Virus record (IMG/VR): IMGVR_UViG_3300048858_000017
Coordinates: 630 to 64,629 of that record
Reading direction: 5' to 3' (one strand)
DNA from: a virus
Length of the DNA stretch: 64,000 nt
The notes under the pieces were generated by a model that was given only the letters and a program-made list of their open reading frames with translations, was not told where the DNA came from and did not search any database. Within the stretch, counting starts at the first letter, position 1, and each line of letters opens with the position of its first letter. Shown here piece by piece: positions 2,202 through 60,300 of this stretch. Position numbers and translations under genes: made by a program.

Positions 2202-2888
2202 TCATCCCCTCCCGTCGCGGGCGAGCGCGCGGTCTATGGCGGCACGGAGTTGCGGCGGGTATTTCGACCCACGCTCCGGCTTCTTCCGTTCCGACTTAGT
2301 CGGGTTCGATACAGCGGCCACAGGGGCCTTCTTGCCCTTCTTTGGGGTGTCGGCCCGCTTCCGCTTCGGAGGGGGCGCAAGCACCGCGTCTAGGCCCTCG
2401 GTCTCGATGCGCTTCTCCAACCGGCGCTGACCCGGGGTGACCTCGTCGGGCAGCTGGGGAAGGGCCTCGACCGTGATCTCGGTGCGTTCCGGATAGCCGT
2501 AGCGTTTGGCGCTGTTCGGGTAGCCGCAGACCTGATTGTCGTCGATGTAAGCGATCCCCTTGAGGGCATCCTTGGCCTGTTTGACGATCTGGTCGAGGTC
2601 AGGGTCGGCGACGTGCATGACACGCGCCTCGCGCGCAGCCTTCTGTAGGGCCTTCGGCCAGCTGGGCGGGATTGCGAATATCGCCACGATCCTGACGATT
2701 ACGGGGCCGGTGAACGGCCGGCGCGACCCGAAGGCCTGCCGGGCCGCCCACGCGATCCGTTGCTTGCCCGCCTCGGCCTCCTTGTCGGTGAACCGCATGG
2801 CCTCGCCGGTGGTGGGGTTTATCCCCTGCCCCGGACGCTGCCAGCGCGACGGCTTCCCGTCGACCTTGAAGGTGACCCGGTCGGTCAC
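2202..2888 (-). CDS. rusA: RusA-family Holliday junction resolvase
   Basis: PDLDQIVKQAKDALKGIAYIDDNQV catalytic motif; GTG start overlaps the ACP stop (GTGA). Confidence 0.8.
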   Translation of the reverse strand: MTDRVTFKVDGKPSRWQRPGQGINPTTGEAMRFTDKEAEAGKQRIAWAARQAFGSRRPFTGPVIVRIVAIFAIPPSWPKALQKAAREARVMHVADPDLDQIVKQAKDALKGIAYIDDNQVCGYPNSAKRYGYPERTEITVEALPQLPDEVTPGQRRLEKRIETEGLDAVLAPPPKRKRADTPKKGKKAPVAAVSNPTKSERKKPERGSKYPPQLRAAIDRALARDGRG

Positions 2889-3130
2889 GCCAGCTTGCGC
2901 TCGACGAGGGCCTGCCAGTCGCCGACGGTTAAGCACTCTTCCGCCTCGACATCGCTGACGCTGATGTTGAAGGCCCCCTCTACCGCCATGGTGAGTTCGA
3001 CGCAGTCGAGGCTGTCGGCACCGAGATCGTCGGCAAGGTTCGCCGTGTCGGTGGCGTCAGCTGCGTCGACACTAAGATGGTCGACGATGATCTCGCGGAC
3101 CTGTTCGGCGCGCGCGGTGGTGTCAGGCAT
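2885..3130 (-). CDS. acpP: Acyl carrier protein (phage-encoded)
   Basis: 81 aa, acidic; VREIIVDHL...DDLGADSLDCVELTMAVEGAFNISVSD matches ACP with an intact phosphopantetheine Ser (DSL); SD GGAGGA. Confidence 0.9.
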   Translation of the reverse strand: MPDTTARAEQVREIIVDHLSVDAADATDTANLADDLGADSLDCVELTMAVEGAFNISVSDVEAEECLTVGDWQALVERKLA

Positions 3131-3179
3131 CAGTTCCTCCGTGGTGGGGGGCGGGCTGGTTCGACCCGCCCCGGGTTGA

Positions 3180-3890
3180 TCAGTCGTCCGTTTCAGCATC
3201 GTCCGAGCCGGCTTCGAAACCGAGGCCGGGCTGGTCCGGGTCGGTATCGGCCTCGCGGGCGTTGCCGCTGTAGTCTTCGACCGACGCCACGGTCAGCATG
3301 ACGTGCTTGCCGCGGGCGCTGTGGAGCAGGCTGACGGCCTGATCCTCCTCGTCCTCGCCGAGGACCTTGACCTTGCCGGCGATGACGATGTCGTCGCCTA
3401 GCGTGACCTTGGTCAGCAGCACCCGCACCGGGTCCTTGCCGTTGGCGGCGATGGCCTCGACGATCTTGCGGACCAGTTCACGGCCGGCATGTTCACAGGC
3501 CGCGGCGACGTCGCGCTGCTCCTGATTGGAGGTTGCCGACCACGGCTTCGGGCGGGACTTGATCTGATCGAGCAGGAAGTCCCGGGCGTCGAACACCAGC
3601 GACTTGTCGTTCAGCACCGCCTCGGAGGCGAGGTTCTCCATGCGGTCGATCGCAGCGGTGTGGGCACCCTCGGTCAGGTCGAGGCCGTCGGTGGCAGCAC
3701 CCTCCTGGGCGCGAACCGCTTCGCCAAGGCTGGACAGGGCGTCGCCCAGCGTGCCCTCTTCCTCCGTCTCGCCGCCGAGGTGGGCCTTGCTGGCGTCGAG
3801 CGCGGCGGCCCCGCCCTTCTTCCGACGAGCCGCTTTCGCGTCCTCGTTCAGTCCGGTCGCCAAGGCGGCGATCCCGTCATCATCTGCCAT
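3180..3890 (-). CDS. Hypothetical protein
   Basis: 236-aa ORF tightly packed in the operon. Confidence 0.75.
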   Translation of the reverse strand: MADDDGIAALATGLNEDAKAARRKKGGAAALDASKAHLGGETEEEGTLGDALSSLGEAVRAQEGAATDGLDLTEGAHTAAIDRMENLASEAVLNDKSLVFDARDFLLDQIKSRPKPWSATSNQEQRDVAAACEHAGRELVRKIVEAIAANGKDPVRVLLTKVTLGDDIVIAGKVKVLGEDEEDQAVSLLHSARGKHVMLTVASVEDYSGNAREADTDPDQPGLGFEAGSDDAETDD

Positions 3891-3891
3891 G

Positions 3892-4560
3892 TCATTCTCC
3901 GTTTCTGCCCGGCCGTTGCGGCGGGGCGGGGTAGCTGCCGGGCGCGAGCCAGACAGTTTCGGTGCGCCAGCGGTGCGGCCGGGTGAACACGACGACGCAA
4001 TAGTCCGCCATGCCGCCGTCGAAGGGCCGCTCCATCTGGTCGATCAGGTGCCCCGGGGGCATGGTGTGCCGCTCCCGGTAGATGCAGGTCTGGGACGGCT
4101 TGAACCGGCCGACGAACTTGTTGTCGCGCCAGCGATCCTGCGATGCGAGGAAGGCGATCGGCAGGATGAACGCGGCGCGGCGCACCGGGAAGGTGTCGAG
4201 GATGCGGGTCATGATCCGCTCCGCGATATCCGCCTCGTAGCTGTAGGGCGGGTTGCAGATCACCGATGTCTCCTTCCCCTCGACGCGCGGCATCTTGGAG
4301 ACGCCAGTCAGGATGTTCCCGCGCTGAAAGGGGTGGCGACAGTGGCGGTCGACGATGTCGGAGCCGAAGGTCCTGTGGCCGTAGCGCTTCGCCACGTCGA
4401 GCGTGTTGCCGATGCCGCAGCACGGGTCCCAGATCAGATCGTCCCAGAAGTCGACGCCATGCATCAGCTGCTCGACCACGCGAGGCGACTCACGATACCA
4501 GTCATAGGGCGCGCGGTCCCACTTCTTGGAGCGGGCACCACCGGCGGGGCGGTTGACCAT
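3892..4560 (-). CDS. Amino-DNA methyltransferase (N6-adenine/N4-cytosine type)
   Basis: SAM motif IWDPCCGIGN and catalytic ICNPPY; start MVNRP overlaps the upstream stop (TAATG). Confidence 0.8.
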   Translation of the reverse strand: MVNRPAGGARSKKWDRAPYDWYRESPRVVEQLMHGVDFWDDLIWDPCCGIGNTLDVAKRYGHRTFGSDIVDRHCRHPFQRGNILTGVSKMPRVEGKETSVICNPPYSYEADIAERIMTRILDTFPVRRAAFILPIAFLASQDRWRDNKFVGRFKPSQTCIYRERHTMPPGHLIDQMERPFDGGMADYCVVVFTRPHRWRTETVWLAPGSYPAPPQRPGRNGE

Positions 4561-4862
4561 TACAGCTTCCCTATCGACGGCGAGTTCAGAAGATCGCGGC
4601 CGGCGCGGCGGGCGGCCCTGATCCACGCCAATTCACGGCGGCACGGCCAGTTCTGGCTCTCGACGCGCTCGATCACCCTGACCCTCACGCCCCCTGCGCG
4701 AACGAAGTCCCCGACGGGCGTTCGCGCATAGCGATGCTGCTTCATGCGGCGATCGGTTGTCGAAGCGCCGGTGCGGCCGATGTAACGCACCCGGCCATCG
4801 GGGCCGATCAGGGCGTAAATCGATGATAGCCAGTCGCGGTCGCCGCGACGCCACACGCTCAT
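4560..4862 (-). CDS. Small GIY-YIG nuclease-domain protein
   Basis: SIYALIGPDGRVRYIGRT...RRMKQH motif. Confidence 0.7.
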   Translation of the reverse strand: MSVWRRGDRDWLSSIYALIGPDGRVRYIGRTGASTTDRRMKQHRYARTPVGDFVRAGGVRVRVIERVESQNWPCRRELAWIRAARRAGRDLLNSPSIGKL

Positions 4863-51482: not shown

Positions 51483-51559
51483 TGGTTGCGGGTGCCGGAT
51501 TCGAACCGGCGACCTAGAGGTTATGAGCCGCTCGCGCTACCAGACTGCGCCAACCCGCA
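51483..51559 (-). tRNA. tRNA with CAT anticodon (fMet-like scaffold, atypical identity elements)
   Basis: 77-nt cloverleaf, T-loop TTCGAAT, encoded CCA, anticodon loop CTCATAA. Confidence 0.93.
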
Positions 51560-51997: not shown

Positions 51998-53659
51998 TCA
52001 AGACGCTCCCCAAGGGTCCTCCTCTAGCCCGGCGTCCGCCTGCATGTCGGACAGGCGCTGCTCGTCACTGCCCGGCTCGACGACCTCGGGGCCGGCGTTC
52101 ATCGGGGCATCGACGCCACCGACCAGTTCGCCGAAGGCGCGCGAGGAGGCGTCGACCTGGTCCTTGAACGACCCCGCCGGGAAGTTCCGCAGTTCCTCCC
52201 GGTAGGCAGCGTTCCAGTCGCCCCTGACGAGGAACACCTTGCCGGCCCCGACCATGGCGGCGAACGGCTCCGCGCGCGTCTCCTTGTCGCCGCTCTCCGG
52301 CGTGATCGAGAAGTTCAGCCCAGCCAGCAGGTCGGCCCACGTCCACTTCACCACCTTGCCGGTCGCGCCGGGGTCCTGCGGCAGGCTGTGCACCATCGAT
52401 GCCCGGCCATAGTCGGCGGCATCAGCGTGCGTGACCGAGTCGACCATCGCGTTCAGTTCGGTCGGGTTGGTGCGGCGACGATCGACGTGCAGGATGTAGA
52501 AGTTGCCGTTGACCCGCTTCATCAGCACCCGGACGGTGTAGGGGCTGTTCTTCCGCTTGGACCCGGCAATATCCCAGCCGCCGACGACCTTGCCACCGCC
52601 CGGGGCCGCCTCGACCGTCTCGATCAGGTCGACCTTGAACATGCCGCCCTCGCGCGGGGCCGGGCGCTGCTGGTACTGACCGGCCCAGACATAGTCGCCG
52701 GCCTTCTTCTGGCGCGCGATGGCCGTGGGCGGCATCCGCACCGGGTCCATCAGTTCGCCCTCGTAGGAGCGTGGATCGGTCCAGTCGCGCTTGCTGCCGG
52801 TGCCGTCGTCGACCTGCAGCGGCGTGACGCAACGGCGCTCCTCCTCGAACTCCATCGGGATGCAGAGGTGGACGAAGCCCAGATCGCGGGCGAGTAGCGC
52901 GCCGGTCAGATCGTCCTGGTGGATGCGCTGCATGACGATGACCATGGCCGAGGTCTCGGCATCGTTCGTGCGGTTCAGGCCGCCCTCGACGAACTTGCGG
53001 ACGGTGGCGGTGCGCTGCTCCTCGCTCTCGGCACCGTCGACGCTGTGCGGATCGTCGATAATCACGACGTCGCCGCGCTTACCCGTGATCGAGGCGAAGG
53101 CGACACCCTCGCGGAAGCCGAAGTCCTTGTTCTCGAAACTGGTCTCGCCGGCACGCTTCAGCTTGCCCTCGTCATCGAACACCTCGGGCCAGAGTTCGCG
53201 ATACCAGTCCGACTGGATCAGATCGCGGGTCTTGCGGGTGTCGCGGGTGACGTTCTTCAAATCGAAGGAGGACGACACGAACCGGCTGGCGGTGTTCCCG
53301 TGCGGCCCCCAGACCCATGCCTGCCACATCACCGAGACGATCATCGACTTCGACGACCCGGGGGGCACGTTGATGATCAGCCAGGGCGTCAGCTGCCCGC
53401 GGGTGATCGCCTCCAAGTGATCACACATCGCCTGCAGATGCCACGACCATTTGAGCGGGTTCTTCGGTTCGAGGACGTGCCACGCCTCCTTCACGAACCC
53501 GGCGAGCGTGCGGCAGCGGGCGCGGATCGCGTCGGCCTGTTCCCGGGTACGCTGCAGGTCGGACGCGGCGATATCGTTCCGAAGCTGGGCACGAAGCGCG
53601 CGCAGCGCCCCGCGGTCCAGCGTCGCGATATCCGGCAGTTCAGTCGTCAGCGCCGGCAT
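51998..53659 (-). CDS. terL: Terminase large subunit
   Basis: Walker A INVPPGSSKS, Walker B VVIIDDPH, nuclease GWDIA and DQVDA. Confidence 0.95.
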   Translation of the reverse strand: MPALTTELPDIATLDRGALRALRAQLRNDIAASDLQRTREQADAIRARCRTLAGFVKEAWHVLEPKNPLKWSWHLQAMCDHLEAITRGQLTPWLIINVPPGSSKSMIVSVMWQAWVWGPHGNTASRFVSSSFDLKNVTRDTRKTRDLIQSDWYRELWPEVFDDEGKLKRAGETSFENKDFGFREGVAFASITGKRGDVVIIDDPHSVDGAESEEQRTATVRKFVEGGLNRTNDAETSAMVIVMQRIHQDDLTGALLARDLGFVHLCIPMEFEEERRCVTPLQVDDGTGSKRDWTDPRSYEGELMDPVRMPPTAIARQKKAGDYVWAGQYQQRPAPREGGMFKVDLIETVEAAPGGGKVVGGWDIAGSKRKNSPYTVRVLMKRVNGNFYILHVDRRRTNPTELNAMVDSVTHADAADYGRASMVHSLPQDPGATGKVVKWTWADLLAGLNFSITPESGDKETRAEPFAAMVGAGKVFLVRGDWNAAYREELRNFPAGSFKDQVDASSRAFGELVGGVDAPMNAGPEVVEPGSDEQRLSDMQADAGLEEDPWGAS

Positions 53660-54209
53660 CGTCCTCGCCGCTTTCGATCAGCTGGTCGAGGACGGGCAGC
53701 AGCGCCCGCTTCTCGTCCTCCGACAGCTTGGACAGGTCGAAGCTGGCGTGCCGGATCGGGCCGCCGTCCTTGCCGGTCATCTCGACCTTGGTCGTCCAGC
53801 CGCCGAGCCGGGCGAGGATGAACTTCTGGGCGTCGAGGTCGCCCTTCGCCAGCGGCTTGCCGTCAGGGCCGGCGGCCTCCGCGTTCATCGCCCGGTTGAC
53901 GACCTGCGCGCCGACGGCGGCCAGCATCTCGGCGCGGCCGAGGTCCATCTCCTCGCGGAGGTGGCGCTGCAGGGTGCGGGTGCTGACGCCGATCAGGCGC
54001 GCGATCATGTGTTCGGCGTGGGGCGGGAAGACCTTGGCGTATTCCCTGACCTTCTTCCGTTGCTCGTCGGTGGCCTCGAACGGCGGGTTGCCGATCCGGC
54101 CCCCGTGGGGGGGCGTGATGACGCCGGCCCCCTTGGGGGTCCCCCGGGCGTCATCGTCCCGGGTTTTGGCGTTCGGCGCTGTGGCGGTCTGTTGGGGCTC
54201 TTCCGGCAT
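53640..54209 (-). CDS. terS: Terminase small subunit
   Basis: HTH IARLIGVSTRTL; FILARLGGW; KVEMTGKDGGPI; precedes terL. Confidence 0.85.
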   Translation of the reverse strand: MPEEPQQTATAPNAKTRDDDARGTPKGAGVITPPHGGRIGNPPFEATDEQRKKVREYAKVFPPHAEHMIARLIGVSTRTLQRHLREEMDLGRAEMLAAVGAQVVNRAMNAEAAGPDGKPLAKGDLDAQKFILARLGGWTTKVEMTGKDGGPIRHASFDLSKLSEDEKRALLPVLDQLIESGEDDAGADD

Positions 54210-54273: not shown

Positions 54274-54711
54274 TTATGCGCGAAGCGCTTCGGTCGCCTC
54301 GGCAAGGACGGCGGGGGTCGGCGTCCAGAACAGCGGCGCGACAGTGCCGGCGCACGCGATGAAGGGGATCGGCCGGGGATTGCGGAGGACGAGGCCGCAG
54401 GGACCCATCCACCATGGACTGTCGCTTTCGCGCACGGCGTCGACGATCTCGACAGCACCGACGATACCGCCGCGCTGCATCTCCTCGAACGACGGGAACG
54501 GCACGTAGCGAGCATCGGTCTTGCCGACCGCCATCGTGATGAACGAGTGGGCGTGCCGATACTCTTCCTGCGTCAGCCCGGCCGAAGCGTGGATCAGCGT
54601 CAGACCGCGGTGACCGAGTCGGCGCGTCCGGTTCTCGATGTCCTTGCCGAGGTGGGTGATCGCGAACGCCCATGGCTGGCGGACGGAGAGGGCGAGGAGA
54701 GGCGCGGTCAT
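54274..54711 (-). CDS. ASCH-domain protein
   Basis: ALSVRQPWA...GKDIENR...LIHAS signature. Confidence 0.9.
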   Translation of the reverse strand: MTAPLLALSVRQPWAFAITHLGKDIENRTRRLGHRGLTLIHASAGLTQEEYRHAHSFITMAVGKTDARYVPFPSFEEMQRGGIVGAVEIVDAVRESDSPWWMGPCGLVLRNPRPIPFIACAGTVAPLFWTPTPAVLAEATEALRA

Positions 54712-54720
54712 GTCGCGGCC

Positions 54721-55386
54721 CTACTCCCCGCCCCGGGAGGTGACAATCTTGAACCGTTCCGCGATCCGGTCGGCCCCGGCCGTCAGCTGTGGCAGATCGG
54801 GACGGTCGGCCGGTGGGCGATCCCACGATGGCTCCCATGTGGCGCAGGCCTCGTCCTGCGGCACCCGGACCAGCCGGCCCGCGTCCAGGTCGGCGAGCGC
54901 GGCGACGAGGAGGCGGACCCCCATCGGGAACAGGCTGTCGCGCCAGAGGTCCGAGGCCGTGGTGCCCGGCCGAACATGCAACCAGTCGGCCGCCGCGATC
55001 GGGCCGCCGTCAACGCGCGGGCCGAGCCAGTAGATCGAGCCGCCGGCGATCGGGTCGCCCATGTGCACGGTCCACTTCACCGCGTCCCGGCCCCTGTGAC
55101 GGGGCAGCAGGGACGGGTGGTAGCCGATGCCCCCTAGCAGGGTGCGCGACAGGGCGCGGTCGCTGACGATGACGTGGGCGTGGGCGCAGACGATCAGGTC
55201 CAGCCCCTCGGGCAGATCATCGGCTGTCAGGCGGGCGGCGCTGGTCGGGATATCGAGGCGGCGGGCCTCCCAGTCGAGGCGGTCGCCGAGCGGGGCGAAC
55301 ACCGCGACCACATCGTGCCCGGCCTCCACGATCGCGCGCAGCGCCGCGGCCCCGAAACTCCGCTGCCCCACCAGTGCAATCCTCAT
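54721..55386 (-). CDS. 10-formyl-THF-dependent formyltransferase-fold protein (ALDH1L1 N-domain-like)
   Basis: RIALVGQ...GHDVVAVF; YHPSLLPRHRG; VDGGPI; LFPMG; ATGA-coupled to the GNAT gene. Confidence 0.9.
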   Translation of the reverse strand: MRIALVGQRSFGAAALRAIVEAGHDVVAVFAPLGDRLDWEARRLDIPTSAARLTADDLPEGLDLIVCAHAHVIVSDRALSRTLLGGIGYHPSLLPRHRGRDAVKWTVHMGDPIAGGSIYWLGPRVDGGPIAAADWLHVRPGTTASDLWRDSLFPMGVRLLVAALADLDAGRLVRVPQDEACATWEPSWDRPPADRPDLPQLTAGADRIAERFKIVTSRGGE

Positions 55387-56582
55387 GCCGGTGCCTTCTC
55401 CGCTGCCTTGCGGGCGGCCCACGCCTCCCCGCGATATTTAAACCCTTGGACGGCCCTGAAATGCCCCCCGTACCCTGCAACCCCCGTCTCGAAATTGCCC
55501 TCGATCAAGCGGGCGCTGTCCGTGGTGCGGGCCGACTTTTTGAGCGACTTCACCGAGGTGGCGCGCCGGTTGCCATGCAGGACCGCGCTGACCTGCTCCC
55601 ACCGGGGGTCACGGCGCAACGCGGCGCAGAGGCCCGGGTGGGAGGTGTGGAAGAACCCGCACTTGACCCGGTCGCCGAACTGCCCCTGACCGCTGACCTC
55701 GCGCTCCATGACCCAGTTCAGGAACTTCATGCCGACGCCCGCCCCCTGCCACTCCGGCATGATGACCATGCGGCAGCCGCGGACGCCGCCGGTGTTGAGG
55801 CGGGGCGCGATCCCGAGGTGGGCCACCGGCTCCCCGTCGACGAACGCGACGAAGTAGCGGCAGGCCACCATGCGGGGCAGCTTCAGATAGTGATGCGGCT
55901 CAAAGAGGTCCCAGTAGGAGCCGTCGACCTGCCGAATTTCAAGTTCGATAGGAGGGCGTCGTCGAAGACGCCTCCCTGCGGCATCCCGCTCGAACACGCC
56001 CGTAGCCGTGTCAAAAATCCAGTCCGGTTCCAGCCAGTCGAGGACGTCGTAATGGCAGGACAGCAGCACGGCCTTCCCGCTGGTGCGCCGCCACGCCTTC
56101 TGGAACGCGAGCGCCCCGATCTTGGCGATCTGGCGGTCGACGACGGACGTGAACTCGTCGATGACCACTGCGGCCGGCTCCTCAGCGACGATGCGGGCCA
56201 GTTCGGCGCGGAACTTCTCGCCGTTCGACAGGACCCCATAGGGGCGCAGCCACGACGGGACCGACCCCAGCCCGACCGCTGACAGCGCGGCGGTGACGGC
56301 GTTGAAGTCGCCCCCGGGCGCGATGGCGTCCACGATCGGGGCGTCGTCGGGCCACTCCCCACCCGTCCACAGCGCGCCTTCCCCGAGGATCGACTTGCCG
56401 AGCGATGTCTTGCCAGAGCCGGAGGGTCCGACGACGACCCCGACCTTCCAGCCGTCGTCATCGATGTCAAGGTCGGCGTCCAGATCGAACGCCTGCCCCG
56501 ACTCGGCGTTGAACAGGCTCTGCACCCGGGCAGCGCGATAGCTGGCGTAGTGCGGGCAACGGTTACGGATTTCGATATGCAT
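55383..56582 (-). CDS. ABC-type ATPase fused to Mom-like GNAT acyltransferase
   Basis: Walker A GPSGSGKT, signature LSNGE, Walker B VVIDEF; FEPHHYL and RMVIMPEWQGAGVG (GNAT motif A). Confidence 0.88.
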   Translation of the reverse strand: MHIEIRNRCPHYASYRAARVQSLFNAESGQAFDLDADLDIDDDGWKVGVVVGPSGSGKTSLGKSILGEGALWTGGEWPDDAPIVDAIAPGGDFNAVTAALSAVGLGSVPSWLRPYGVLSNGEKFRAELARIVAEEPAAVVIDEFTSVVDRQIAKIGALAFQKAWRRTSGKAVLLSCHYDVLDWLEPDWIFDTATGVFERDAAGRRLRRRPPIELEIRQVDGSYWDLFEPHHYLKLPRMVACRYFVAFVDGEPVAHLGIAPRLNTGGVRGCRMVIMPEWQGAGVGMKFLNWVMEREVSGQGQFGDRVKCGFFHTSHPGLCAALRRDPRWEQVSAVLHGNRRATSVKSLKKSARTTDSARLIEGNFETGVAGYGGHFRAVQGFKYRGEAWAARKAAEKAPA

Positions 56583-56713: not shown

Positions 56714-57355
56714 TCAGACGACCACCACCTTGACGTTGTCGGCCCCATAGGTCTGGCGCAGGGCGTTGAAGCAGGCCTCCTGTGCCGCCTCGTCGGCGCA
56801 GCGGACGATGACGGCGAACTGGTCGACATGCTCATAGGTGCTGTCGGCATCGGTGCCCTGCCCGCGGGCCTTTGCCGGGGCCTCCCCTTCCTCGGGGGTG
56901 CCGATCAGCTGCTCGATCGCGTCGGCACCGAACCCGAGCGGGGCCATGTCGAAGTCGACGCCGGCGAGCGCGTCCAGTTCCCCAGTCAGGATGCCGATAT
57001 CCCACCCGGCGTTCTCGGCGATGCGGTTGTCGGCGAGCGCATAGGCCCGGCGCTCCTCCTCGGTCCAGCCGGTGCAGTCGATCACCGGCATCGTGCCGTC
57101 GGGGATCATGTGGCCGCCGCGCTCCTTGCCGGGGGCCATGTAGATGCGCTCGCCCGCGGCGTAGATCAGCTGCGCGGCGCGCTGCCTGCCATGCCCGGCG
57201 CGGATCAGTTCGTCGGCGAGAGCAGGGGCGGTCCAGCCGAAGCGGCGGATCGAAGTAGCGATCTCCTCGACCTGCGCGTCGCTATGCGTCCGGGCATTGC
57301 GGGGGTCGGGGACCAGGTCGTCGACCTTGCGGAACTGAATGGTGGGCTTCGGCAT
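56714..57355 (-). CDS. ParB/Srx-like N-terminal domain protein
   Basis: DLVPDPRNARTHSDAQVEEIATSIRRFGW...AGHGR...YALADNRIAE. Confidence 0.88.
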   Translation of the reverse strand: MPKPTIQFRKVDDLVPDPRNARTHSDAQVEEIATSIRRFGWTAPALADELIRAGHGRQRAAQLIYAAGERIYMAPGKERGGHMIPDGTMPVIDCTGWTEEERRAYALADNRIAENAGWDIGILTGELDALAGVDFDMAPLGFGADAIEQLIGTPEEGEAPAKARGQGTDADSTYEHVDQFAVIVRCADEAAQEACFNALRQTYGADNVKVVVV

Positions 57356-60300
57356 CAGGTCGGCGTCCTCTCGGCGATGTATGCGGCCAGCCGTTCCCCG
57401 GCGTCAGGAACGCGGAGGAAGGCGAGCAGGTGGGTGTTCAGTTCGAGGTCGTGGGCGTCGCATAGCGCGTACCAGCCGAGCCGGCCGATAGCACAGGGCC
57501 GGAGCGACCACTGCGCCGTCGCCGGGGCACCGCAGTGCACGCAGCTGACGCGGCGCAGTCCCGCGACGGTGTAGGGCTTCGTCCTCACCGGACCCAGCCC
57601 TCCCGCCGGGCCAGATCATCGCAGCGCTCGATGCAGGCCGCGATCACGGTGGCGAAGCTGTCATCGTTCAGAACGGCCTCGCAGTAGCAGCGGCGACCGC
57701 CCCCGTGTGGATAGATCGCGTCGACGCGGGCGGCCGGCTTGCCGGAGGCATCAGTGATCCGGCGAGCGGCATAGACCGGCTCGGCGTCCTCCGGCGGGGC
57801 CTCGGCCTGCAGATGGACGACGGGGTGTTCGTGCCCGGCGATGCCGAGGACCAGCTTGCCCCCGCCCAGTTGCAGCAGGGCCTCGGTCTGGTCGAGTTCC
57901 CATGCCGACCGCATGTAGTGGATGCCGCCCATGATCTCGCGGCGAATGAAGAGGCCGCCGCAGTGGCCGTGCTTTTCGGGGTCCCAGTCGCGGGGCGCAC
58001 CCAGAGGCTTGGGGTCTGCCCCCTCGATCCTGACGGTTCTCATGAGACGCCGGCATACCGCCGCGCCGGCCCGCGCGCTAGAGGACGGCGCGTCCGATCG
58101 GGCCGACGGCACTGTCGAGGAGGCGGGCCAGCGCCCGGAGCGTCAGGATCGGGTTCGCCCCGAAATGCCGCTGGACCTGACCGTAGGGGTCGGGGTCGCC
58201 CGTCATCAGCCAGCGCTGCAACCGGTTGACCAGATGCTCCTCGTCCTGTTGCTCCTGCGGGGCATCGCACAGCGGCACGTCGCCGTTGCCGTCGTGGATT
58301 GCGTAGCTGAACGGCTGGCCGATCGCATCAGCGACGAAGTGGTGGGTCAGGTCATGCTCGGTGATGTAGCGCCACCAGTCGGAGCCGTAACCCATCTCGC
58401 GCGCGGCGGCCCCGCCATCGCTGGGGTCATGGACCCACATCTGGTTCGTGACGCCGTCGGCGAATACGGAGGTGTTCACCCCCTGCCCCAGCACCATCAC
58501 GGCGGTGCTGAACTGAACCGCGCGCGGGGTCATCGCCGTCCCCGCCGGCCAGCCCGGCGCAGGCCCCGCGGGATGCGGTATGTAATCACCGAGCCGTCCC
58601 CGCATCGCATCACCATGTCGTCAGGAATCGGGATCGGGTCGTTGCGCAGCGCCTCGATCTCGTCGGCCTCTCGCTTGGCGCGAAAGCAGGGGCCGCAGAA
58701 GTCGCCGGGCTTCCACCGGGCCGCGACCCTGTGGCCGGCCTCGCAGACTTTGACCGCGGTCTTGGGGATGGTGCGGGGCTTAGGTCCCGCCGTCTTCGTC
58801 GTCGCCATCAGCGGAGAGCAGCACGAGCGGCTCTAGCGCGTCAAGCGCGGTGGTGATCCAGATGTTCTCGTAGCCGGTGCGAACAGACCAGGCGGTATTC
58901 GCCCAGGCTGATCCTTTTCGGTCGAGTTGGCGGGCAAAGGCCTCGCGGGCCAGTTCTCGGGCGCGTGTCACGGCCGGCGCTCTACCACTGGGTCGATATC
59001 CCCGTCGAGGCCGAGGTCGCGCATCAGGTTCCGCATCGGCGTCGCCCGCAGGCGCGCCTCTTCCGGCGTCAGCAGGCCCCGGTTCCACTGGTCGATCAGC
59101 ATCCCGCGCTCGTCGACGAACTCGCGGATGCGGGCGGTCTGCTCCGGTGTGGCCGGCCAGTAGCCTTGCGGGGCCAGACCGCGGATCGGGTAGCCGATCT
59201 TCGTCCCTGTCATGCCGTTGCCGGTGATCCAGCGCAGGCCGACCATGTCACCCTTGATCGGGTCGGTCTGGCCCGCGACCGGGTCAAACCAGCGGTCGGT
59301 GCACAGCGCCAGCGTGACGTAGCGCCGGGTGGTGACCACCTCGCGGGTGTCGTCGTTCGCCACCGGGGGCAGGCCGGCAAGGCGCAGCGGCTGTTCATAG
59401 CGAACGCTGTGCGACTTGCCCTTGAGGATCAGGCCGTCGCCCACCTTGAGGTCGGGGAAGCGGAGGGCGCGAGCCGGCTTGCGCTTCGGCTTTCGCTCGG
59501 CCTGGACGAACCGCGTGCCCTCGGCGTCATGGATGACCGTCCACCCGGGCTGACCGTAGCGGGGGTCGCGCTCCCACCACCACGTCATAGCAGCGATCCC
59601 TGCTTCTGTGGTGCCTGATCCCGGGCGGCCGGTGCCGGCGAGGCCAGTAAGGTGTCATCCGGCAGAGGCGAGGCAAGCTTGTCGCAGGGGCCGCACCTCC
59701 ACGGGGTGCCGGGCTTGCCGCCGTCTTGGCTGAACGTTGGATGCCGCTTGCCGCAGTCGGCGCAACGGGCCGGTTTCCACGACTTCATACGGGGTGCCGG
59801 CATCACGCCTGCTCGACATCATGCCAGCGTCCCCGGCGGTCGATGTCACGGATCGCCCACCCCGGGAACTCGGTCGTTATGACCACGCTGACGCCATCAA
59901 TCTCCGGGTTGGTCTCGTCTCGAAGTGACTTCTGATCGGCATATATCGCGACCAGAGCGGAGGCACCGACCAGGACCGCACGCTCGCGCCCTCGGGGCGG
60001 TGGACAGGCAGCATTGAGCGCGGCGCGTATCTCGGTCATTGCGGTCACAGGCCTGCCCTCCTCAGTTCCTCTTCCAGCCCCGGCGGCAGCCCGGGGCTAT
60101 CGCCGATCCGGTCCCCGGCAGCAATGCGGACGCATCGCACCCAGATCAGCTGCAGCAGCCGTTCCGTCCTGACGATCGCGATGCGCTGTGGCGAGCCGGG
60201 CGGCAGTTCCCAGAACGACTGCACCCGGGCCTTGCGGAGGCGGCGCTTCCACAGCCGGGTCACCGCGGAGCGCCGGGTCTTGAGGGCGCGAGGCACCCGA

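Follow-up and report, generated by a model that had tools for sequence, protein, structure and literature searches.

Gene Order at the Packaging Locus

The window analyzed here, a stretch of 64,000 nucleotides, comprises bases 630-64629 of a 67,605-bp virus record of 68% G+C with direct terminal repeats of 127 bp, and its structural genes are similar to those of the Erythrobacter phages ZS04 and R6L. The locus of interest lies on the minus strand and begins with a 175-aa open reading frame (ORF; 57585-58112) and a 77-aa ORF (57355-57588), which precede a gene for a 213-aa protein with a ParB N-domain (56714-57355; ParB-like according to PHROGs 498 and 620). The last approximately 40 residues of this protein form a small adaptor domain (SD) of about 38 aa, delimited by HMM at the C-terminal end (56717-56836). 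Next is a gene for a fusion of an ABC-ATPase and a GNAT domain (ABC-GNAT; 55383-56582, ~399 aa; PHROG 11143, E = 6e-143), for which the ATG at 56582 is given as the start codon and whose ORF is open back to 56654. It is followed by the gene for a stand-alone, FDH_N-like formyltransferase (FT) of 221 aa (54721-55386), identified by Pfam and by PHROG 9240 (E = 8.5e-49). Further downstream on the same strand are genes for an ASCH-domain protein (54274-54711; Atlas score 0.96, TM 0.87), TerS (53640-54209), and TerL (51998-53659), and a tRNA-Met(CAT) gene (51483-51559) is located between the TerL and portal genes. The cassette stands first in the packaging operon, in the order ParB-SD, ABC-GNAT, FT, ASCH, TerS, TerL.

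The start codon of the FT gene overlaps the stop codon of ABC-GNAT as ATGA and is preceded by a GGAG-type ribosome-binding site. The ASCH (PUA-like) gene begins 9 nt downstream of FT. ASCH proteins have ties to N4-acylcytidine and to the reading of modified bases; a functional link between ASCH and FT is uncertain, and no ASCH gene occurs near FT in any of the 80 other loci (80/80).

The Formyltransferase

The FT ORF extends on the minus strand from an ATG at 55386 to a stop codon at 54721-54723, as the initial annotation had placed it, and all of the motifs quoted there are present: MRIALVGQRSFG, GHDVVAVF, GYHPSLLPRHRGRDAVKWTVHMGD, LFPMG, and PQDEACATWE. An in-frame GTG lies upstream at 55422, and homologues do not use it. 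The protein matches Pfam Formyl_trans_N (PF00551) with an E-value of 3.9e-16 and a score of 59.8 bits (gathering threshold, 26.1), and an AF2 model examined with Foldseek shows a Rossmann-like fold with the SLLP loop (pLDDT 84.7, the tail being of low confidence).

The earlier preference for the N-domain of ALDH1L1, a 10-formyl-THF dehydrogenase (FDH), over Fmt and PurN holds at three levels. Searched as a single sequence against the PDB, FT scores highest with FDH 2bw0 (84.5 bits, E = 7.8e-23), compared with 54.9 bits for the best Fmt, 36 for ArnA, and 28 for PurN. With a family profile and alignment built from 30 diverse members, the kind of comparison that the initial annotation had proposed as a check, FDH reaches 129.6 bits (E = 1e-36) vs. 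89.5 for the best Fmt, 64.6 for E. coli Fmt, 57.7 for ArnA, and 45 for PurN, and HypX/HoxX is a distant match at 23.9 bits. In the Foldseek comparison of the FT model with the PDB, FDH hydrolase domains take the first five places (E = 4.6e-17, TMq 0.78, 30-34% identity), and Fmt and ArnA come next. The solved proteins nearest to FT in sequence, profile score, and predicted fold are the hydrolase domains of ALDH1L1/FDH.

Conservation within the family is consistent with an active enzyme. His90, Ser92, and Asp126 are invariant among the 30 members and constitute the predicted catalytic triad, and Gly88 occupies the position of the Asn in the N-x-H motif, the absence of which had been pointed out previously. 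An A68-H69-x-H71 motif is invariant and specific to the FT family, and the tail carries a conserved RPDL motif in which Arg195 is invariant. The protein ends approximately 35 residues past the ATWEP motif, so that the earlier statement that it has no Fmt-type C-terminal tRNA-binding domain is correct: neither Formyl_trans_C nor the second subdomain (FDH residues ~204-310) is found, and alignments with FDH end at about residue 187 of FT and at residues 203-225 of the FDH chain. FT has no recognizable DNA- or tRNA-binding domain, and its ORF has no linked carrier (4'-PP) or ALDH domain. In the FDH hydrolase domain, the formyl acceptor is the thiol of 4'-phosphopantetheine (PMC8748788), contacts of which with the Nt-domain were not resolved in the cryo-EM structure of ALDH1L1.

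Two departures from this organization were observed among relatives. One FT subgroup (L008:10001-10735 and L013:5725-6453) has a Cys-rich C-terminal extension with the pattern CxxC ... CxWC, possibly a zinc ribbon, which the FT of the window lacks. In P0244 and P0292, the N-terminal part of ABC(-GNAT) runs directly into the C-terminal half of FT, through either natural deletion or fusion or an artefact of assembly.

Partner Genes of the Cassette

Neighboring genes were examined in 80 FT-bearing IMG/VR loci. ABC-GNAT lies directly upstream of FT on the same strand in all 67 loci with enough upstream sequence (67/67), which, with the ATGA overlap in the window, upholds the earlier suggestion that FT works with the GNAT. 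A ParB-like gene stands ahead of ABC-GNAT in 42 of 54 loci, and the HMM of the adaptor domain matches the C-terminus of the ORF before ABC-GNAT in every untruncated locus (78/78), as it does residues ~174-213 of the ParB-like protein of the window (E = 8.7e-13); it also matches FT-less versions from Streptococcus and Oenococcus phages. This domain of ~38 aa is predicted to be beta-alpha-beta, with a consensus of roughly F-x-Y-K-x-x-x-G-V-I-V-x-C-x-D-E-x-x-Q ... K-V-V-V-V. Most phages have it fused to a ParB N-domain, and Mu-like phages encode it as a mini-gene of its own: three of these (phiE255, Komp_PAO1_1, and Porphyromonas 007a) have no ParB gene and carry a 42-54-aa mini-gene matching the last ~40 residues of the window ParB-like protein (L002:4722-4886, L018:3858-4007, and L017:3876-4004), one copy of which is annotated as 'acr candidate'. 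Natural fusions of ParB, ABC, and GNAT also occur (P0358, P0351, P0363, and P0288). The trio of FT, ABC-GNAT, and adaptor is found in Gordonia, Burkholderia, Pseudomonas, and Porphyromonas phages, and it is almost certain that FT is a member of a ParB-adaptor/ABC-GNAT/FT cassette (PHROGs 11143 and 9240).

ABC-GNAT itself belongs to a family of 528 clusters (50% identity) at E < 1e-30, in which Walker A and B, an LSNGE signature, and the H-loop are invariant, as is Q279-G280-x-G282 of GNAT motif A, the CoA pyrophosphate-binding motif. Its predicted model is confident (pLDDT 90); Foldseek of the whole model matched only ABC nucleotide-binding domains and returned no solved protein of ABC-GNAT architecture. 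A GNAT-only profile matched only generic GNATs in the PDB (E >= 2e-4), with a weak match to NAT10 at motif A (E = 0.02), and the ABC domain bears a weak similarity to two translation factors of the ABC-F group, EttA and ExpZ. A Pfam scan (E <= 0.01) found no Mom-family model in ABC-GNAT, only ABC_tran, AAA, and the generic Acetyltransf_1/7. Two ABC-GNAT homologues, P0381 and P0385, are broken by inteins with Hint and LAGLIDADG homing-endonuclease domains.

Cassette Variants and Their Evolution

In a maximum-likelihood tree of 53 ABC-GNATs, 41 of them FT-linked, all of the latter (41/41) fall on one side of a branch with a stem length of 2.28 and support of 100/100. The long stem fits a functional change at the gain of FT. 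Since the FT-linked proteins all lie behind this one stem, FT joined an older two-gene system a single time and subsequently reached phages whose hosts belong to Pseudomonadota, Actinomycetota, and Bacteroidota. The FT-linked cassette was observed in phages of these three host phyla, and FT-less versions in phages of Bacillota and Spirochaetota hosts.

A sister variant provides a clue to the role of the third gene. In it, the genes after ABC-GNAT encode an aspartate 1-decarboxylase (PanD) and a CoA-transferase III-like protein instead of FT. Two loci of this type are known, L102:2282-5047 (phage Jace gp85-88) and L114:1291-4043, the latter from an independent metagenome contig; the PanD retains the GS self-cleavage site, and the CoA-transferase III-like proteins are short (227-241 aa). 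The two proteins would plausibly supply beta-alanyl-CoA, and their replacement of FT suggests that the accessory genes of these cassettes make an acyl-CoA donor. No further donor-making enzymes were found beside the FT-less ABC-GNATs of PX29, pT24, EastWest, and VmeM-32, where unannotated neighbors were examined with Pfam. A candidate divergent FT beside a sister ABC-GNAT (L107) proved not to be an FT.

FT-less versions of the cassette adjoin DNA methyltransferase and terminase genes. In ZS04, a close relative, the site that is syntenic with the cassette of the window is occupied by an 812-aa fusion of ParB and a DNA methyltransferase (ZS04_7, L001:11683-14121), and alternative DNA-modifying modules thus appear to swap at one locus between the two phages.

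A Proposed Role in DNA Acylation Before Packaging

The best explanation for the cassette, advanced tentatively and with a likelihood just short of even, is that it acylates phage DNA late, before packaging, with FT supplying the formyl group, for which formyl-CoA is the most likely form. The ParB/adaptor protein would recruit ABC-GNAT to phage DNA, where the ABC domain would bind and hydrolyze ATP and so expose a base to the GNAT, by the logic of TmcA and NAT10; the GNAT would draw on a CoA thioester to acylate an exocyclic base amine, leaving the DNA marked ahead of packaging as by Mom in phage Mu. With 10-formyl-THF as the source, FT would load formyl onto a pantetheine thiol, most likely that of free CoA, and because formyl-CoA would be the product, the mark would be N-formyl.

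The target is probably DNA, to judge from several aspects of genomic context and precedent. In phiE255, Komp_PAO1_1, and the Porphyromonas phage, all three Mu-like, the cassette follows the tail-fibre genes, and in phage Mu com-mom is likewise located after the tail-fibre genes. To this Mom slot can be added the exchange with a ParB-methyltransferase in ZS04 and the neighbors of the FT-less versions. ParB-like proteins have been shown to activate a phage DNA-modifying dioxygenase (PMC13229309), and for the ABC-ATPase+GNAT system, still called uncharacterized in 2021, acylation of a DNA base has been predicted (PMC7824862, citing Iyer et al., 2013).

CoA as the acceptor of formyl is a conjecture that we rate at somewhat less than even odds. 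A formyl-CoA role for FT is suggested by analogy with the PanD/CoA-transferase variant, known from two loci, and it fits the CoA motif of the GNAT, the likeness of FT to a subfamily with a thiol acceptor, and the precedent of HypX. It also fits the supply of the donor: to our knowledge, formyl-CoA is not a general metabolite, and most hosts do not supply it. HypX has been proposed to make formyl-CoA from 10-formyl-THF (PMC6802093). Two observations on Mom and on acylated bases temper the proposal. Since Mom uses charged tRNA rather than CoA as donor (PMC13219725), the conserved GNAT motif A is suggestive only, and adenines acylated at N6 are reportedly unstable (PMC13219725), so that a plain N-formyl group might be lost from the DNA. 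In its widest form, the proposal would be one of enzymatic N-formylation of DNA bases by a formyl-CoA synthase (FT) and an ATP-driven GNAT, with sister cassettes using other self-made acyl-CoAs, e.g., beta-alanyl-CoA, and all of them belonging to a modular, CoA-dependent family in phages of several bacterial phyla; this wider claim is possible but somewhat unlikely.

Alternative Acceptors and Targets

FT might instead be an amine formyltransferase that acts after or beside the GNAT, on the free amine of its adduct or on a base amine, an alternative that we consider rather unlikely but worth weighing. Most members of the fold, including Fmt, ArnA, PurN, the sugar N-formyltransferases, and the F-domain of LgrA, formylate amines; Mom, a DNA-directed GNAT, can use aminoacyl-tRNA and thereby leave a reactive amine (PMC13219725), and a free amine would also be present on the beta-alanyl group that the PanD variant implies. 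Against this, the GNAT retains the acyl-CoA motif A, the FT cassette includes no gene that would supply an aminoacyl donor, FT is nearest to the sole subfamily with a thiol acceptor, and no domain for binding DNA or tRNA could be recognized in it.

It is improbable that the target of the cassette is something other than phage DNA, whether an RNA or tRNA, modified through ac4C-like chemistry, or a protein, for instance a host factor or one involved in packaging. The characterized enzymes that combine an ATPase with a GNAT, TmcA and NAT10, do act on RNA, and the weak match to NAT10 motif A, the weak resemblance of the ABC domain to EttA and ExpZ, and the presence after FT in the window of a gene for an RNA-associated, PUA-like ASCH domain could be taken to point the same way. 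The ASCH gene, however, is peculiar to the window among the FT loci examined, and the fusion or adjacency of a ParB N-domain to ABC-GNAT, the position of the cassette in the Mom slot, and its replacement in ZS04 by a ParB-DNA methyltransferase all argue for DNA.

The Phage Acyl Carrier Protein

The initial annotation had proposed a split, ALDH1L1-like relay, in which an acyl carrier protein (ACP) encoded by the phage ferries formyl from FT to the GNAT. The ACP is genuine (2885-3199, minus strand; PF00550, 6e-11; NCBIfam ACP models, up to 1.8e-22) and carries the DSL attachment serine, and it is the sole PP-binding domain of the genome. It is encoded on the same strand as FT and, if the ends of the record are joined, lies ~15 kb upstream of the cassette across the 127-bp terminal repeat, with ~20 genes between. 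Together with the confirmed FDH_N likeness of FT, these features favor the relay, yet its distribution speaks against it, and we regard it as very improbable.

ACP and FT dissociate in both directions across phages. In phage databases, relatives of the ACP were confined to ZS04 and R6L, a jumbo phage of Burkholderia, and a single faecal contig. Protein searches with FT and ABC-GNAT gave no match in ZS04 or R6L, and neither gene was found in the ZS04 locus inspected; the ACP of ZS04, like that of R6L, lies within the same block of methyltransferase, hypothetical protein, ACP, RusA, and RepO genes as that of the window, a block of replication/recombination genes. Conversely, four complete genomes that bear FT, those of Burkholderia phage phiE255, Gordonia phage Sisko, Porphyromonas phage 007a, and Pseudomonas phage Komp_PAO1_1, gave no PF00550 match (4/4), and the domain was absent from eight of eight FT-bearing IMG/VR records and from 19 of a further 20 of at least 30 kb, the sole positive record of the 28 being a provirus. 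No ACP occurs within 8 kb on either side of FT in the 80 loci, and the phage has neither a PPTase gene nor an adenylating or acyl-activating enzyme. Since each occurs without the other in relatives, ACP and FT have been uncoupled in evolution, and their association in the window is a coincidence of lineage. The relay is already contradicted as a general mechanism; what survives of the earlier idea is the passage of formyl through a pantetheine thiol to the GNAT, provided that the carrier is free CoA or a host ACP.

The surrounding early block (2202-4626, minus strand) is conserved and comprises an NPPY-type methyltransferase-like ORF, a gene for a 236-aa acidic protein, ACP, and RusA. A small GIY-YIG-like ORF (4560-4862, minus strand) lies beside the methyltransferase-like gene, with a Pfam E-value of 4e-4, just under the cut-off.

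Translational and Metabolic Readings of the Formyltransferase

That FT is a true Fmt acting on Met-tRNA, perhaps on the phage tRNA-Met (51483-51559), or a PurN-/PurU-like auxiliary metabolic gene of folate metabolism is hardly credible and is largely refuted on scores, domains, and synteny, on which both the former assignment and a PurN-type one were rejected: public annotations do name relatives 'methionyl-tRNA formyltransferase' or 'phosphoribosylglycinamide formyltransferase', and the tRNA(CAT) gene is only 3.2 kb from FT, but the protein scores 55 bits with TIGR00460 (fmt) against a cut-off of 201.5 and 34.5 bits with TIGR00639 (PurN) against 150.1, lacks both the C-terminal tRNA-binding domain and the Asn of N-x-H, and has an obligate linkage to ABC-GNAT that such a function leaves unexplained. 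The tRNA-Met gene is syntenic in FT-less ZS04 (L001:7965-8041), and at 20 other loci the vicinity of FT lacks it; because its position is conserved where FT is missing, it is unrelated to FT. The public annotations of FT as 'methionyl-tRNA formyltransferase', 'tRNA-methyltransferase', or 'PurN' are accordingly wrong.

A DpdN-type 7-deazaguanine formyltransferase was also considered for FT and rejected. No queuosine or Dpd gene was found among the ORFs scanned, which were part of those in the window.

Significance and Comparison With Known Systems

If the proposed acylation of DNA from CoA thioesters is correct, a DNA chemistry not previously observed is present in many phages, one in which an acyl group, probably formyl, is placed on base amines. 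This would have a bearing on restriction evasion, sequencing artefacts, and DNA-labeling tools, and FT would offer a stand-alone microbial counterpart of the animal ALDH1L1 N-domain in which the transfer of formyl to a thiol could be studied. A full-text search of the literature for papers combining formyltransferase, GNAT, ParB, and phage returned no relevant paper.

The system to which the cassette is most directly related is the ABC-ATPase+GNAT system of Iyer, Zhang, Burroughs, and Aravind (2013), of which the gene next to FT in the window is a member, with the same domain order and the same association with ParB (PMC7824862). The passages of PMC7824862 that summarize this system mention no formyltransferase partner. 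The FT-armed cassette is a form of that predicted system, its FT-linked branch being one derived clade within the family.

Mom of phage Mu, the best known of the GNATs that acylate DNA, offers a functional parallel to the proposed cassette, being a late, GNAT-fold enzyme whose acylation of a base in double-stranded DNA serves anti-restriction. The cassette lies in a slot equivalent to that of com-mom in three Mu-like phages, again with a tiny gene upstream, but the small upstream protein lacks the zinc-finger cysteines of Com. Mom also differs in being a single enzyme with a Gly-tRNA donor and no ATPase (PMC13219725). TmcA and NAT10 resemble ABC-GNAT in that an NTPase is fused to a CoA-dependent GNAT and the acceptor is a poorly nucleophilic exocyclic base amine; their ATPase, however, is of the RecD-like helicase class rather than ABC, and their substrate is RNA.

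For FT itself, the closest counterpart is the N-domain of ALDH1L1/FDH (PDB 2bw0, 1s3i, and 4qpd), with 30-34% identity over ~200 residues, the common motifs GQxxFG, YHPSLLPRHRG, LFPxG, and PQxExxAT(Y/W)E, and a His-Ser-Asp triad without the Asn of N-x-H. Unlike ALDH1L1/FDH, FT ends after the catalytic subdomain, without Formyl_trans_C, carrier, or ALDH domains, has its own invariant AHxH motif and RPDL tail, and is encoded by phages, always behind an ABC-GNAT gene. The N-domain of HypX/HoxX has the same fold and comes closest to the reaction proposed here, as it is proposed to make formyl-CoA from 10-formyl-THF for a CoA-dependent domain farther along the protein (PMC6802093). The step that follows in HypX is a decarbonylation carried out by a crotonase-like domain, whereas in the phage cassette it would be acyl transfer by the GNAT.
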